44,854 bases of DNA from Bradymonadales bacterium. Lineage in GTDB: Bacteria > Bdellovibrionota > UBA2394. The DNA lies in NCBI GenBank assembly GCA_007693605.1, contig REDG01000022.1, positions 1-44,854 on the forward strand, read 5' to 3'. Positions 39,653-44,854 of this stretch are shown in pieces. Each line of letters opens with the position of its first letter. The stretch's first letter is position 1. The notes below the pieces were generated by a model, which was not told where the DNA came from, did no database searches, and was given only the letters and a program-made list of their open reading frames with translations. Both the position numbers and the translations under genes were made by a program.

Positions 39653-40012
39653 GAAGCGCTCCTTCTTCGAATTTTAGGAGTAAATCGAGCCCAGCCGTCT
39701 GGTCCGAAAATCAGGTTGCCTCCAAATGGGGCCTGAACACCTGAGTTTAAGGTAACATAAACTGAAGAATCGGAAAAAGCTCCTAAACGCTCATTTATCT
39801 TAGTGAAAGCCGTAAACTTGGGCAACTTTCGACATCTTCAATTTACGGGCTTAGAAGCCCCTTCGATGGGTCCGAAGCCCAAACCCACCAAGCCAGAAAG
39901 CGAATCTTTTTGCTGCCCCCGCCCAAAGACAATTTAAGTTGATTCTCAAGCTCTCTCGACTTATTGCTGATATCGGCATCTCTTTTCCAGGCCATTCGAC
40001 CCCCAATCGCAT

Positions 40013-40089
40013 GGTGTCTGTAGCTCAGTTGGTAGAGCCCCGGATTGTGATTCCGGTCGTCGTGGGTTCGAGTCCCATCAGACACCCCA
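40013..40089 (+). tRNA. tRNA-His (GUG) with G-1 and encoded CCA
   Basis: G-1 plus GTGTCTG/CAGACAC-C73 acceptor stem, D arm GCTC/GAGC, anticodon arm CCGGA-TTGTGAT-TCCGG, T loop GGTTCGAGTCC, CCA at 40087-40089. Confidence 0.97.
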
Positions 40090-40196
40090 TCTTGCGTCCT
40101 CTTTTTCCGCCCAGCTTCGTTGCTCTCCTCACTGCGCTGCTCATATGGATGACCAACCGGCAAGTTAGAATATTGAATATTTTCAAACATATGATG

Positions 40197-40325
40197 GTCT
40201 CTTGGACTTTACAACCTCATATTCGCGTGCTGGTTAACGCATTAAGTTTTGTCCGTACGAAAGGCTTATCCACAATCTCGCGTCAGATGCTTTGTTTCTA
40301 AGCAGCGCCCGTGGGCTACCTTTCA
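40197..40325 (-). ncRNA. predicted bridge RNA / seekRNA in the non-coding region downstream of the transposase
   Basis: Stem-flanked internal loop carrying GCGCUGCU and ACGCGAG (target matches), plus a second stem-loop carrying AUAUGAG (donor-junction match). RNA ends are approximate. Confidence 0.7.
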
Positions 40326-40396
40326 TTCCACTTCATCACTGTTTATTCAATAGTCTCCTCGTCCTTTTTTGATCGTTTGATCAAAGTTTCAAATTC

Positions 40397-41515
40397 TTAA
40401 GCGGCAGCCCTCAGAGACTCCCAAACAAAACCCAGCAGCTCCCGAGCACAAGCCACTTTCACCTTATTGACGGGCTTGCCCGCATACAAAAGCCTGGAGG
40501 ACTTCTTGTGCAGCCGTTTCATACAACGATCCGCAATTTCAACAAGTTTTGGATCCACCCCCTTTCTCTTCTCCTTCAATCTCACACTCAGCTGAGGGAT
40601 TCGAGAGGCCATCTGACAGGCTTCCACTGCACTCGTCCTGATTCGATAATTTCCCATTTTGCTGAGCTGATACCGTCGATGCCGACCCCCGGAGCTATAT
40701 TCTCGCAAATCCAAGCCCGCATAAGAGGTCAACCGACGAGGGTGATCAAACCTCTGGATGTCCCCAAGCTCTGTGATCAAGGTCATCGAGGTCAGGGTGT
40801 CGATCCCCCGATAGCAATTCAAAGCCGCCACTTTTTTTCTATAGAGCGGAGCTTCCGCAATCCTCAAGATCTCTTCATCATAAACGGCCACAGAACTCTC
40901 CATCTGATGGAGCTGACTCAGAAGAATCTTAAGGTTAAACTCAAGGGCCCTTTCCGTGAGCCTCCCGAGTTCGGCCTCTAGCCAATTCAGATGAGACTTT
41001 GTCCAATACGCCGCTTTCTTCGAGCCTCTCGACTCGCGATAATCCAGCTTATGACGCCGACATAAAGCCAAAATATGCCGCTTTAGATCATTTACCTGCT
41101 CCTTCTGAAACTTTCGAGAGCGAATCAAATCTCGAATACTCTCTTCTTTCTCATCAGGGATATGAACAATACTTAACAAGCCCTTCTGGTAATACTCGGC
41201 TAGCTCCCGACAGTCGACCTTGTCCGTCTTCACCGCCTTGCCCACTCGTCGAGGAATCGAAGAGGGGGCCACCACTTCGCACAATACCCCCTTAAGAGCC
41301 AAAGCCCTCTGAAGACTAAAGCCAAGATAGGTCGCCTCGTAACACAGCTTTACGGGCTGACCCAGATCCATAAAAACCTTTAGCTTCTTTAGTAAAGCCC
41401 CCACGCTCGGCTTACACCTGAATTCTACCCGCTTTTCAGGCCGCCCCTCAATGATCCCACAACCGTGAAACGCTTCATCATCGACATCAATTCCTACATA
41501 TGTTACCAACTCCAT
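40397..41515 (-). CDS. IS110 family transposase/recombinase
   Basis: RuvC-like DEDD domain (YVGIDV, CYEAT, KTDKVD) and C-terminal YAGL...YSSGG serine motif. Confidence 0.95.
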   Translation of the reverse strand: MELVTYVGIDVDDEAFHGCGIIEGRPEKRVEFRCKPSVGALLKKLKVFMDLGQPVKLCYEATYLGFSLQRALALKGVLCEVVAPSSIPRRVGKAVKTDKVDCRELAEYYQKGLLSIVHIPDEKEESIRDLIRSRKFQKEQVNDLKRHILALCRRHKLDYRESRGSKKAAYWTKSHLNWLEAELGRLTERALEFNLKILLSQLHQMESSVAVYDEEILRIAEAPLYRKKVAALNCYRGIDTLTSMTLITELGDIQRFDHPRRLTSYAGLDLREYSSGGRHRRYQLSKMGNYRIRTSAVEACQMASRIPQLSVRLKEKRKGVDPKLVEIADRCMKRLHKKSSRLLYAGKPVNKVKVACARELLGFVWESLRAAA

Positions 41516-41763
41516 TGGATGACCTCCTTCTTCTTGTTTACATCTAGAAAATGATCACTTGATCACTTTATGTGTGAGGTAACCAGCCCTCGATTTAAAG
41601 AGGTTGGTCATCCATTATTTCTCGAGTAGTGTTGAACTACACTCCGCTGCTCGTTTCGTCGGCGCCTTGCTGGGCGAAAAAATTGAACGCAATCTGGCGA
41701 GGAGGTGTCTTTCTAGGACTCGAACCCACGAGTGGGGGAGAGGGGCATCAGACACCCCACTTG

Positions 41764-41920
41764 CTCAGATAAGCGCATTTTCGCCATACTTTCTCAGCCT
41801 CGGTACTCACTCAGTTACGTAGCATCCAAACTACGCGCCTTCGTTCGAACGCATCGGCTTCGTCGTCTGGCTCGCTTCTCTTTGTAGCTGGCGAGAAGGT
41901 GTCTTCAGGGACTCGAACCA
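41764..41920 (+). repeat. divergent second type of tRNA-linked hairpin unit
   Basis: TTTTCGCCA/TGGCGAGAA and CGTAG/CTACG stems; ends in an antisense tRNA-His fragment at 41898-41919. Confidence 0.65.
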
Positions 41921-42001
41921 TTTTTCCTCCATTTTCAAGCCGGAGGGTATTTTCAGTGTCGCTCTAAATGGATTTTTGATAGGGGTGAAAAAGGTGGTTT
42001 T

Positions 42002-42664
42002 ATGGGTTTAATCATTCGATCGGTGTTGGTTGGAATCTTTTCTTTGGGGCTTGGATCAGCGAAGGGGAGCGACTGCGCAGCTGTGATTCGTGCAGCAGTA
42101 GTAGACCCCTTTAATGTGACAAGACTTGTGTACTCTAGTCCTGATGCAGTGGGCGAGGCCCTTCGTCGATTTCTACAGTTGGATATGCCTGCTGAGCGGC
42201 GAGAATTGCCACAGGTGCCAGTTGGCTCATTGGCGGAGTTTTTTAGTTTCCATTTGCCTGCCAAGTCTATTGGTGAAATGCATAAGGCGCCTCAAGTTAA
42301 GATTTATGGAGAGATGCTTGCGTGGTTCTGGTTGACTCAGCAGGGCAACATTCCAGATGGGGCGCTGCTGTCATGTCGATCATGTGGGACTTTGCCGGAT
42401 ACCCCTGTATTGGTCGAGATGCGATCCGGCTCTGATGTTGAGAGACTGGAGGCAGGAATGACAATCGCAGGAGTTTCTCGGCCGATCGAAGGAGTTTCGG
42501 AATTTGTTCTCACGATTGAGAGTCGTGATGGCAGATTCAAGGCTCAGTTCGTTGAAGATCTAAGTAGGGGTGGATTTCTGGTAAAAGTCACGACTGTTTC
42601 ACGAGGGCGTTTTCGGAATAGAGTAGAAAGCCATTCATTTCAGGTGGAGTCGCTGGCGCCATAG
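42002..42664 (+). CDS. hypothetical exported protein
   Basis: 220-codon ORF, AAGGTGG RBS-like element, N-terminal signal peptide, CRSC motif. Confidence 0.65.
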   Translation: MGLIIRSVLVGIFSLGLGSAKGSDCAAVIRAAVVDPFNVTRLVYSSPDAVGEALRRFLQLDMPAERRELPQVPVGSLAEFFSFHLPAKSIGEMHKAPQVKIYGEMLAWFWLTQQGNIPDGALLSCRSCGTLPDTPVLVEMRSGSDVERLEAGMTIAGVSRPIEGVSEFVLTIESRDGRFKAQFVEDLSRGGFLVKVTTVSRGRFRNRVESHSFQVESLAP

Positions 42665-42699
42665 TTGTCTTCTTCTTATGAGTTGGCCGACCGCTAATC

Positions 42700-42858
42700 T
42701 TAGGCGGTAACGTTCTGAACTGTTCTCGCATGCCACCTTCCCTTTTTTGTCTTCGGTGGCACCTTCAACGTGTTGAGAATCTCTGAAATTTTCCAATAGC
42801 TATAGCCCTTCTCGCGAAGCTCCTTCATTTTTTCGATGGTCTCGGCCCGCTTTCGCAA
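42700..42858 (-). pseudogene. fragment of a serine-recombinase 'Recombinase' (PF07508-like) DNA-binding domain
   Basis: Manual translation, below the track length cutoff: LRKRAETIEKMKELREKGYSYWKISEILNTLKVPPKTKKGRWHARTVQNVTA*; resembles the C-terminal half of 44074-44481. Confidence 0.65.
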
Positions 42859-42864
42859 TGGAAG

Positions 42865-43392
42865 TCAATGTGCAGGCCGTGCGAGATTAACGGCCTTTGA
42901 TGTGCTGCTGTTGCGAGTTCCCCCAAGCACATACGGGCCGATTTCTTCGGCAGCCCTGGGTAGATAGACAAAGACTTCAAGGTCTGAAATATCTCCCAGG
43001 TGTTTCTCAATCAGAAGCTTTACATCGTGCCACTTTAGGCCACCTAGGCTGCAACCAAGAGCAGGCATTGCAAGTGTGTGAATGCCTAGATCCGTGTAAT
43101 GTTCAGCCAAATACTTAAGGCCAGCTTCAACATCTTCAAGATAAGAAGGTTCTTTCCAATGACGTTTCGTTGGGAAGTTTAAAATCTGAACCTGATCGTC
43201 CTCCCATAGATAAGGAACGCCCGGCTTCACTTCGCCACGTCCGCAGCGCTGTTTATAGTCGTCAAAAAGTGCAGGGTATCGAGCCTTGAACTCAAGAGCG
43301 AGTCCCTTTCCCATCGCCCCCGCACAATTGACAGAGTTGGTGAGAACCTGAGCAGGAGAGTCAAAAATATTTCCTTCCACGTATGTGATCAC
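42865..43392 (-). CDS. darG: macrodomain antitoxin (DNA ADP-ribosylhydrolase), DarG-like
   Basis: MITYVEGNIF, NSVNCAGAMGKGLA..FK..YP, NFPTK, PALGC.LGGL.W. GTG start 43392 overlaps the stop of the restored darT frame (GTGA). Confidence 0.88.
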   Translation of the reverse strand: MITYVEGNIFDSPAQVLTNSVNCAGAMGKGLALEFKARYPALFDDYKQRCGRGEVKPGVPYLWEDDQVQILNFPTKRHWKEPSYLEDVEAGLKYLAEHYTDLGIHTLAMPALGCSLGGLKWHDVKLLIEKHLGDISDLEVFVYLPRAAEEIGPYVLGGTRNSSTSKAVNLARPAH

Positions 43393-44040
43393 TTGTGCCC
43401 TGCCCTTTCTATGAAATACCAACCAGGGTTAATCTTCACTGTCCTATTTATACCAAACCGCTTCAGAACGGCCAAGGTGTTCGCCTGAGCTTCTTTAGAA
43501 TAGCAAATAATATCCAGGATCCAGGAGATGGTCAATTGGCAAAGAATCTGGAACAAGGACTTCAGCCTGTTTCTTACGCTTGAGGTCGAGGTCATGAGCA
43601 TATTTGACGGTCTGGATGGCCTTTGAATCAATGACTGCCAGATCATCTATCGTTTTAAAGACTTTGAATTGAGTATCTATTGAGCGCGCGTTCCCATCAG
43701 AGATGACAACTCCCTGCAGGCTGAGAATGTCCAAGGAAAATCTTAGAAACAGAAGATTGTCGTTCTGATCTTGATTCCGAGCGACCATAGGAGTTTTAAA
43801 GCCAAAATATAGTGGGACGTAATCATGCAGTGGTCGATCTGTTTCTTTGATCCGTATGCCTGCCCTGCCTTTTTGTACGTCCTCATTGGAAAGGTTAAAA
43901 TAAGTACGCCCCCGCATTCGATTGTAAGACTGCAAGTTTCCACATTCAAAAATGCTTTCCAGATTCTGATGGTGAGTCATGTGATGTGCGGGGCCAAGTT
44001 GAAACCGCTCTTTGATTGTCTGGTAGAGGGGCTCTGGCAT
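43389..44040 (-). pseudogene. darT: DarT ssDNA ADP-ribosyltransferase toxin (DUF4433), frameshifted
   Basis: HMTH..NL.SI, LHDYVPLYF..KTPM, SDGNA, KQAEVLV. The C-terminus (...INPGWYF) continues in another frame after a 7-bp tandem duplication at 43512-43526. Confidence 0.88.
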
Positions 44041-44073
44041 TGCCCAAAAATTTGCAAAGATTTTTGGATTTTG

Positions 44074-44481
44074 TCAGGTAATTAATCTCGATGTTAATTT
44101 GAGGGCCTGGCAGCCAAATCCCCCAAAAAACAGTTCTGGCTTGCCATTGGCCCCTTCCCGTCTGCTGCGCTTGAGGATGGAGTGGACGACCTTCCGGTCC
44201 CACTTTTCAAGACCTGTTTTTGTCCTAATATTTTGGCTCGTCAGCCAATCTGCTATTTCTCGATATGTGTTACCGTTGGTACGTAGTCGCCGCATTTCTA
44301 AAATCAATTTTTGCTCAGATCGATGAGGAACGACCTTACCCCTTTCCAGTTTATACCCGAACGCCAATTGGCCAGTGAAGCCTGTTCGTAGCGGCCCCTG
44401 TCTGATCGAGATTCCGAAGAGATCTAAATGCTTCATTACTGACGACCTAGCGCAGCCGATTTCTCTGGCAATTTGGCCCAT
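44074..44481 (-). CDS. small HTH + Recombinase-domain protein with no catalytic serine-resolvase domain; true 5' end unclear
   Basis: QIAREIGCARSSV HTH, AFGY, EQ..I..M..LR..G.TYREIA..L...I.TK...W motif. The frame stays open upstream without an ATG/GTG/TTG start. Confidence 0.7.
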   Translation of the reverse strand: MGQIAREIGCARSSVMKHLDLFGISIRQGPLRTGFTGQLAFGYKLERGKVVPHRSEQKLILEMRRLRTNGNTYREIADWLTSQNIRTKTGLEKWDRKVVHSILKRSRREGANGKPELFFGGFGCQALKLTSRLIT

Positions 44482-44609
44482 AGACTTCCCGTTTTTTACG
44501 TATTCGCGGTATAGAAAATCTCTATCTTTGTATGGCTGAGCCTCAAAAAACGGTGTAGTTATAATGAGATCGCTGTGGGGATCGTTAACTAGTTTACTGG
44601 AGCGTCTTG

Positions 44610-44811
44610 CACCCCATCTTGCGTCCTCTTTTTCCGCCCAGCTTCGTTGCTCTCCTCACTGCGCTGCTCGAGTAGTGTTGAACTACACTCCGCTGCTCGT
44701 TTCGTCGGCGCCTTGCTGGGCGCAAAAATTGAACGCAATCTGGCGAGGAGGTGTCTTTCTAGGGCTCGAACCCACGAAGTGGGGGAGAGGCTCATCAGAC
44801 ACCCCATCTTG
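44610..44811 (+). repeat. tRNA-linked palindromic repeat, intact copy (empty IS target), ending in a 19-bp duplicate of the tRNA-His 3' end and flank
   Basis: CATCAGACACCCCATCTTG at 44793-44811 equals 40076-40094; the body matches copy 1. Confidence 0.93.
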
Positions 44812-44837
44812 ACAGGGTGGTACACCCGTGTAACACT
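44809..44837 (+). promoter_or_regulatory. putative sigma70 promoter with an operator-like palindrome
   Basis: Perfect TTGACA at 44809-44814, weak -10 region (TAACACT), TACAC-cc-GTGTA palindrome in the spacer, ATG at 44844. Confidence 0.45.
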
Positions 44838-44854
44838 TAACCCATGCCCACTGA

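Follow-up and report, generated by a model that had tools for sequence, protein, structure and literature searches.

RNA-guided targeting by elements of the kind studied here has been known since 2024. According to the accessible parts of PMC11208160 and PMC11208158, IS621 and IS622 (ISCro4) have a CT core, a recombinase with a DEDD and serine residue set, and a bridge RNA in which the target loop comes before the donor loop. In PMC11208158, as far as its available text goes, the stem-loops are closed by U..G, a handshake slot follows the AG that pairs with the core, the donor stem-loop is conserved, and each of the four Tnp domains in IS621 binds an A/syn-G corner of its own. The element described below shares the core, residue set, loop order, closing bases and conserved donor stem-loop, and probably the handshake slot, whereas in IS621 and IS622 the RNA lies in the left end and has four corners and a full left donor guide, and the repeats are short (same sources). 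The seekRNA elements of the IS1111 group (ISEc11, ISPa11 and ISKpn4), as described in the available portion of PMC11187229, share other features with it: repeat extensions of 7 bp at the left end and 3 bp at the right, a non-coding region downstream of tnp in which the complement of the top strand stands ahead of the match to the bottom strand, and, for ISPa11, a REP-type target. That description mentions neither a donor guide nor a handshake, nor an antisense RNA from the left end, and in it Siddiquee et al. 2024 (PMC11187229) give as not known which domain binds the ends of the IS. ISPpu9 and ISPpu10, in the accessible text of PMC12288879, resemble the element in having AG at both ends on the tnp strand, a REP target and an antisense RNA (Asr9 and Asr10) just upstream of tnp; they differ in having the IS110 layout without subterminal repeats, and their antisense RNAs come without a reported bridge-RNA motif.

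The element lies in the window, by which we mean the whole 44,854-nt stretch of DNA that was analyzed, at 40142..41622 on the minus strand (1,481 bp when the left-end core copy is counted), and the CT core stands at 40140-40141 and 41621-41622. Its ends and core could be fixed because an empty copy of the target site, at 44661-44673 on the plus strand and inside a REP-like repeat, has flanks identical to those of the occupied site. Two perfect 14-bp subterminal inverted repeats sit 3 bp inside the right end (40145..40158, plus strand) and 7 bp inside the left end (41602..41615, plus strand). Repeats of 11-17 bp were found in 51 of 55 relatives, in which end calling favored AG, making the frequency of AG there partly built in. 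The genome holds one full copy of the element. Its 372-aa DEDD recombinase/transposase (40397..41515, minus strand; Pfam PF01548 and PF02371) joins a DEDD RuvC domain to a Tnp domain with the catalytic serine, the combination that defines the superfamily, and D10, E60, D98, D101 and S275 are intact, each being kept in 52-55 of 55 aligned homologs. We conclude that the element is an intact IS110-superfamily member with the IS1111 layout, its RNA region lying downstream of the recombinase.

The closest proteins found were 60% identical to this recombinase, and a check of 40 relative genomes for a close copy returned none, the best being 51%. Compared with the IS1111 group in the available portion of PMC11187229, the repeats and layout agree and the protein does not: it has 372 rather than 330-350 aa, is 24% identical to IS5075 over 298 aa instead of related along its full length, and has L for P in the GL-P----SG motif. 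Profiles of IS621 and IS622 matched it with E-values of only 1.5e-16 and 6.9e-19, and of the features that mark the IS621 type, a left donor guide that includes the core was not found and three corners, rather than four, were found in one RNA. ISSfr2 (L163) has a transposase 34% identical to this one; ISSfr2 and ISCARN28 share [YF]EA and K[TV]KTD-type motifs with it, and the ISSfr2 locus has, by eye, variants of both the donor stem-loop and the left-end hairpin, without the promoter-forming codons discussed below. Two further loci (L164 and L165), which with ISSfr2 are 34-37% identical, likewise carry a variant donor stem-loop downstream of tnp. ISCARN28 is one of six elements with a bridge RNA predicted in Durrant et al. 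2024 (PMC11208160, accessible part), and a left donor guide is drawn for each element according to the legend in that paper, on whose text this comparison is based.

Relatives were fetched from 80 of 121 confirmed loci in genomes and 80 of 264 in metagenomes, giving 161 loci with the window; 126 of them had the donor-loop anchor and fell into 77 clusters at 90%, and the 35 dropped for a missing anchor were truncated, or divergent such as L009-L017. Guides were parsed by structure, blind to the target, with a G before the right target guide as a parsing requirement, which yielded right guides in 120 loci and left guides in 89. The donor loop was itself the anchor, so conservation of its stems and AG is partly by construction. 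Covariation tests used one locus per cluster with the window excluded, and tree-aware tests used disjoint pairs on a FastTree tree of 97 proteins. We also observed that L009-L017, L075 and L077 are multi-copy with the usual left end; they had no recognizable donor loop or right end within 420 nt, and their right end is divergent or longer.

Both target guides lie in a stem-loop region at 40259..40325 (minus strand), in which the stem CCAC/GUGG is kept in 63-69 of 69 relatives and the apical stem in 52-62 of 68, with compensatory types present. An earlier note on this DNA had described this stem-loop and a second one and had read three guides from them; the MFE and centroid folds each contain the two stem-loops, and the three matches were as described, all three guides being on the minus strand. 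The left target guide, GCGCTGCT at 40301-40308, agrees in 8/8 positions with the flank plus core at 40134-40141; the right target guide, ACGCGAG at 40277-40283, agrees in 6/7 with the complement of 41621-41627; and ATATGAG at 40216-40222, in the second stem-loop, is a 7/7 match to the complement of 40140-40146. When the 238-nt right end was shuffled 5,000 times with dinucleotides preserved, matches this good arose at frequencies of 0.0018, 0.24 and 0.029, respectively, and all three together in 0 of 5,000. The right-target match taken alone is thus at chance level and needs support from covariation, a test that it passed. Similarly, the 141-nt core of the region folds no better than shuffles (z -0.71; -2.5 for the whole right end), so the structure rests on the relatives and not on energy.

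Covariation of guides with insertion flanks, the check that the earlier note had asked for, held in permutation tests and in tree-aware pairs alike. At positions -6 to -1 the left guide (40303-40308, next to the core slots) equals the flank in 56, 65, 77, 87, 79 and 90% of 52 clusters; permuted data gave 26-53% (each p 0.0002), and at -7 and -8 the same clusters gave no signal. The right guide, which begins with the core AG, matches at +1 to +4 in 98, 81, 69 and 51% of 59 clusters, against about 30% when permuted, and is null at +5 (25% vs 27%). Controls in which guides were shifted by 1-2 bases or exchanged for one another stayed at background level overall. Tree-aware pairs on all branches gave p 0.0075 or less for left -1 to -6 and p below 0.001 for right +1 to +3, with p 0.18 at +4 and 0.79 at +5; we therefore treat +1 to +3 as firm, +4 as suggestive and +5 as without signal. 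A stricter test on starred branches only reached p<0.05 just for right +1 and +2, with too few pairs elsewhere. It could be argued that the matches are chance resemblances in an ordinary non-coding end, given how often shuffles reproduce the right-target match and how ordinary the fold of the core region is; position-specific covariation in 52-59 clusters, with null controls, refutes this, and we give it almost no credence. We conclude from these sequence comparisons that the target guides covary with the insertion flanks in 52-59 distinct relatives and are real rather than due to chance. By analogy with IS621 and ISEc11, this copy would be programmable.

These comparisons also refine what the note had proposed about the core and the target. 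CTC, not only CT, is common to both junctions and the empty site, so the length of the core cannot be read from this copy alone; across relatives, target +1 varies and follows the guide (98% of 59 clusters), and on this basis the proposed 2-nt core stands. The companion proposal, that all three guides carry the same CT/AG, holds less well, as the left guide does not consistently pair the core T across relatives: its second core slot is variable (CT 24, CA 18, CC 6, TA 5 and TT 5 among 58 parsed cluster representatives, with 14 of 72 unparsed). For the preferred target, suggested to be GCGCTG-CT-CGCGT, the relatives bear out 6 nt, CT and 3-4 nt, but not the final T, since +5 does not covary; the target is therefore better read as GCGCTG-CT-CGC(G). 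The window copy itself has a mismatch at right target +3. In two relatives, L040 and L142, the target stem-loop has the same 8-nt loop as the donor stem-loop.

A REP-like repeat with about 84 loci genome-wide (by loose blastn; for example 44640-44720) holds both complete insertion sites, that of the window copy and that of a 109-bp, MITE-like mini-element on contig C71 (G000:C71:22046-22158, locus L161). The mini-element consists of a left end joined to a right tip at a 9-nt shared sequence, the internal repeat copy, and contigs of run X1, which may be the source sample, were assembled separately and contain the junction as well; MITEPpu9, in the available text of PMC12288879, is likewise a non-autonomous mini-element. 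It is inserted at GCGCTG-CT-CGCTC, with the same 6-nt left flank as the window copy, and its right flank has the +3 base predicted by the guide, which the site of the window copy lacks. On contig C30 (G000:C30:53202-53248, locus L162), a 47-nt left-end fragment adjoins CT-CGGGA. The three right flanks, of the window copy, C71 and C30, each match 3/4 of the guide-predicted bases, at differing positions. Genome-wide, 89 of 205 sites with <=2 mismatches from the 12-nt guide word fall in the REP-like repeat. The sole perfect site (C16:46284) is empty, which hints at a context preference, as reported for ISPpu10. As a separate observation, the C30 fragment ends exactly where the corner hairpin described below ends, and its donor differs by 1 base from that of the window copy. 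A 1,481-nt skip in run X1 was considered as a sign of excision and rejected, as the empty copy at 44661 explains it; among the contigs of that run that were listed there was no circle joint, and contigs drop rare forms.

The second stem-loop is the donor-binding loop (40204..40254, minus strand), which contains a near-invariant apical stem-loop at 40224-40241. Its 3' strand holds the right donor guide at 40216..40222, which pairs with the top strand and is complementary to the core and the 5 terminal bases of the right end. This guide matches in 98-100% of 61 clusters at each position, and its +2 position changes along with the end, all 3 of 3 independent tree pairs being concordant, with just 3 independent changes. 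By this comparative evidence the right donor guide, too, is real. Next to it lies the handshake slot (40214..40215), whose base after the donor AG is complementary to target -1 in 45 of 61 clusters (null 52%, permutation p 1e-4; tree-aware p 0.06), with all 7 U cases facing A; in the window copy the slot is mismatched to target -1. In 58 of 59 clusters the corresponding target-loop base, which faces the invariant T of the donor, is a purine (A or G).

A short motif, AGY-N4-G, stands directly before each of these guides, at 40310..40317 before the left target guide, at 40284-40291 before the right target guide and at 40224-40231 before the right donor guide (all minus strand). All four letters are present in 58/69, 39/69 and 67/69 relatives, respectively, and the A and G before the right target guide in 53/69. 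We infer that this motif is the equivalent of the IS621 corners; its A and G are 7 nt apart here as against 5 in IS621, which is why the equivalence is an analogy. Before the fourth slot, where a left donor guide would begin, the motif was present in 0 of 69.

The fourth slot lies on the 5' strand of the donor loop (40242-40250, minus strand), where we could demonstrate neither a left donor guide nor a corner motif. The earlier note had likewise seen no convincing second donor guide, and our blind search of both ends and both strands agrees, giving a left-donor match of 1.66 vs 1.69 in shuffles; the same kind of search recovered the target guide as a positive control (4.91 vs 3.08). Candidates elsewhere, at 40166-40173 and on the sense strand of the left end, did not rise above shuffles. 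The notion that the donor apical loop is a displaced guide for an internal site was ruled out by the loop-deviation data given below.

A short guide could instead sit in a donor loop of canonical form, with CUU at 40244-40246, perhaps together with 40247, as a left donor guide of 3-4 nt, and with the left-end hairpin and promoter described below as a separate translational control. The CUU is invariant and matches left donor -1, -2 and -3 in 95, 93 and 81% of relatives; its C at -3 is retained even where the intramolecular partner changes (15/69), the donor has T in every one of the 18 cases in which the guide has U at -4, and donor-binding nucleotides lie in multi-loops in many IS1111 RNAs (Durrant et al., PMC11208160, in the part available). 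Position 40247 follows donor -4 (58 vs 33%) and ranked first among 1,636 blind tests; it nevertheless pairs better with 40214 inside the RNA (56/69), and the tree test for -4 gave p 0.12. Moreover, the core slots of this strand are AA in 57/72 and never CT, no corner precedes them, the window copy would pair only 3/4, and the left-end repeat of the guide-loop motif would be left unexplained. We regard a short guide of this kind as rather doubtful.

That repeat is a fourth copy of the corner and its stem-loop, at 41575..41592 on the plus strand, opposite to the transposase and 28 nt from the core. Of 84 left-end clusters, 66 have the full motif, U-4 bp-UA-N3-AGY-4 bp-G, on the strand that does not encode the transposase (derived from 137 loci; 2 of the 66 copies are off-position), compared with 3 on the sense strand and 4.1 in shuffles. 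Its stems show compensatory changes, and the U..G flanks are kept in 53/66; stem wobbles favor the sense strand in a few left ends (L148, L121, L052 and L155). A kissing interaction of the donor stem-loop with the left-end hairpin in its sense orientation was considered and rejected for lack of covariation between the two loops: in 45 pairs, 0 of 26 that deviate from the consensus deviate together, and 11 left ends swap the 3-nt loop for a hairpin with no change of the donor loop. We also set aside a strict 'G-N6-AG' guide arm following the corner of the left end, as it was modal yet present in only 25/68.

Upstream of this hairpin, within the 5' end of the transposase gene, we predict a promoter directed outward (41481..41509, plus strand; -35 at 41481-41486, -10 at 41504-41509). 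A sigma-70-like promoter in this orientation was found in 54 of 84 left-end clusters vs 17.7 in shuffles, and in 48 of 78 vs 11.1 +/- 2.8 under synonymous recoding (maximum 20 in 300). The codons for Asp-Val in the catalytic motif form the -35; the Val codon is GTC in 72/78, against 23% elsewhere, the next Asp codon is free (52/26), and the first base of the -10 is T in 99% (26% expected). The relatives in these tests are not fully independent, but the sites in question are synonymous in proteins 40-60% identical. In the window copy the -10 is weak, with a TG extension and without the last T that 85% of relatives have, and a consensus promoter scan of this copy did not call the outward promoter.

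The predicted start falls at an internal repeat copy over the ribosome-binding site (67/84), and 9 nt past the -10 in 41/73. From there, an antisense RNA of ~105 nt is predicted to run to the end of the element (41516..41622, plus strand). In its predicted fold the internal repeat copy pairs with the terminal repeat, and the two copies close a three-way junction that includes an AT-rich hairpin and the corner hairpin and leaves a free 3' tail (z -4.0 in the window copy; median z -5.5 across relatives, vs mononucleotide shuffles). The tail corresponds to the left donor plus the core and is unpaired in 64 of 65 relatives' folds. Two RNA runs from the same study gave tRNA cross-mapping only at 90% and no reads at 80%, and are no test of expression.

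The hairpin could act as DNA instead: on the top strand, once this is excised or transferred, it would anchor one recombinase subunit and so stand in for a left donor guide. By the IS621 convention the motif belongs to the top strand, and it lies 25-29 nt from the core in 48/63; CazIS110-1 excises and integrates its top strand (bioRxiv 2025.10.25.684509, as far as its accessible text goes), and the C71 mini-element retains the hairpin without the promoter. As DNA, however, the hairpin is weak (z -0.9), and conservation of the promoter, together with a start site located at the stem base, speaks for RNA. We consider a role as DNA improbable.

A further reading joins the absent corner to the extra one, which correspond one to one. 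The bridge RNA would then be made of two pieces, a downstream RNA with three corners and the antisense left-end RNA, which would provide the fourth corner and, in its 3' tail, the left donor guide, the left end thereby guiding itself. The tail has, by definition, the sequence that left donor guides copy, and it is left free in nearly all folds as described; left donors drift, with 16 variants in 55 clusters, whereas right donors have 5 variants and change with their guide; and the loops of IS621 and IS622 function when split (PMC11208158 and bioRxiv 2025.05.14.653916, available parts). Against this, the corner G is separated from the core by 23-36 nt and does not adjoin the guide as in IS621, no terminator was called in the left end, and an ISEc11 mini-element carrying 50 bp of left end was mobile with the downstream RNA only (PMC11187229, available portion), albeit in a distant clade. 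A self-copy, moreover, lies beyond the reach of covariation. A two-piece RNA seems to us unlikely.

We favor, with modest confidence, a different account: the region is the bridge-RNA region of an element with the IS1111 layout, its target guides tracking the flanks and its right donor guide matching the right end, the left donor is likely read by protein, and the predicted antisense RNA is likely a regulator bound by the recombinase. As is known for the family, the element would circularize, and a promoter at the junction would transcribe the transposase gene together with the downstream RNA. In modeled circle junctions the best sigma-70 match falls at the same offset in 39 of 55 (with no null for comparison), and that of the window copy has a 19-nt spacer. 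The target loop would then select, by the covariation above, 6 nt, CT and 3-4 nt, here in the REP-like repeat, and the 3' strand of the donor loop would pair with the right end, its next base tending to complement target -1 much like the IS621 handshake; the 5' strand would contribute neither a guide nor the corner that precedes the other three guides. The outward promoter in the first codons is predicted to yield an RNA complementary to the ribosome-binding site and carrying the fourth corner. By binding this RNA, the recombinase may link its own level to its own translation, with the RNA as a decoy or feedback device. Antisense control is a feature of IS10-type elements.

The guides are of a known kind and would in themselves make a clean new example. 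What is new relative to known bridge RNAs is the one-armed donor loop together with a predicted left-end RNA that carries the guide-loop motif; a literature search, covering mostly journals outside subscription, found neither a three-cornered bridge RNA nor an antisense RNA from the left end that bears such a motif. In this family, the way in which an element with subterminal repeats recognizes its ends becomes testable, as the family combines the one-armed loop with a precise extra motif and a promoter that could be silenced by synonymous changes without altering the enzyme. Should the antisense RNA be a structural part, two RNAs would be needed to engineer this clade; as a decoy, it would amount to a built-in brake. 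The clade, <=60% identical to anything else found, also offers natural design rules: a 6+2+4 target, a tolerant second core slot and a handshake at target -1.

A search of Rfam over 39900-44854 (E<=1) returned nothing except tRNA. Among 55 relatives, 10 (L004, L027, L083, L087, L126 and others) have their right junction at AG-GAG, AG-GTG or AG-GAA followed by ATG within 8-18 nt, and appear to target ribosome-binding sites. Finally, we noticed an island at 42865-44481 (minus strand) with a toxin-antitoxin pair, DarT (PF14487) and a DarG-like macrodomain protein (PF01661), and a short recombinase-like ORF (PF07508). The island is bracketed by repeats of a tRNA-His 3' end plus a REP-like unit, in which 40083-40142 equals 44610-44669 and 41621-41738 approximates 44667-44784.
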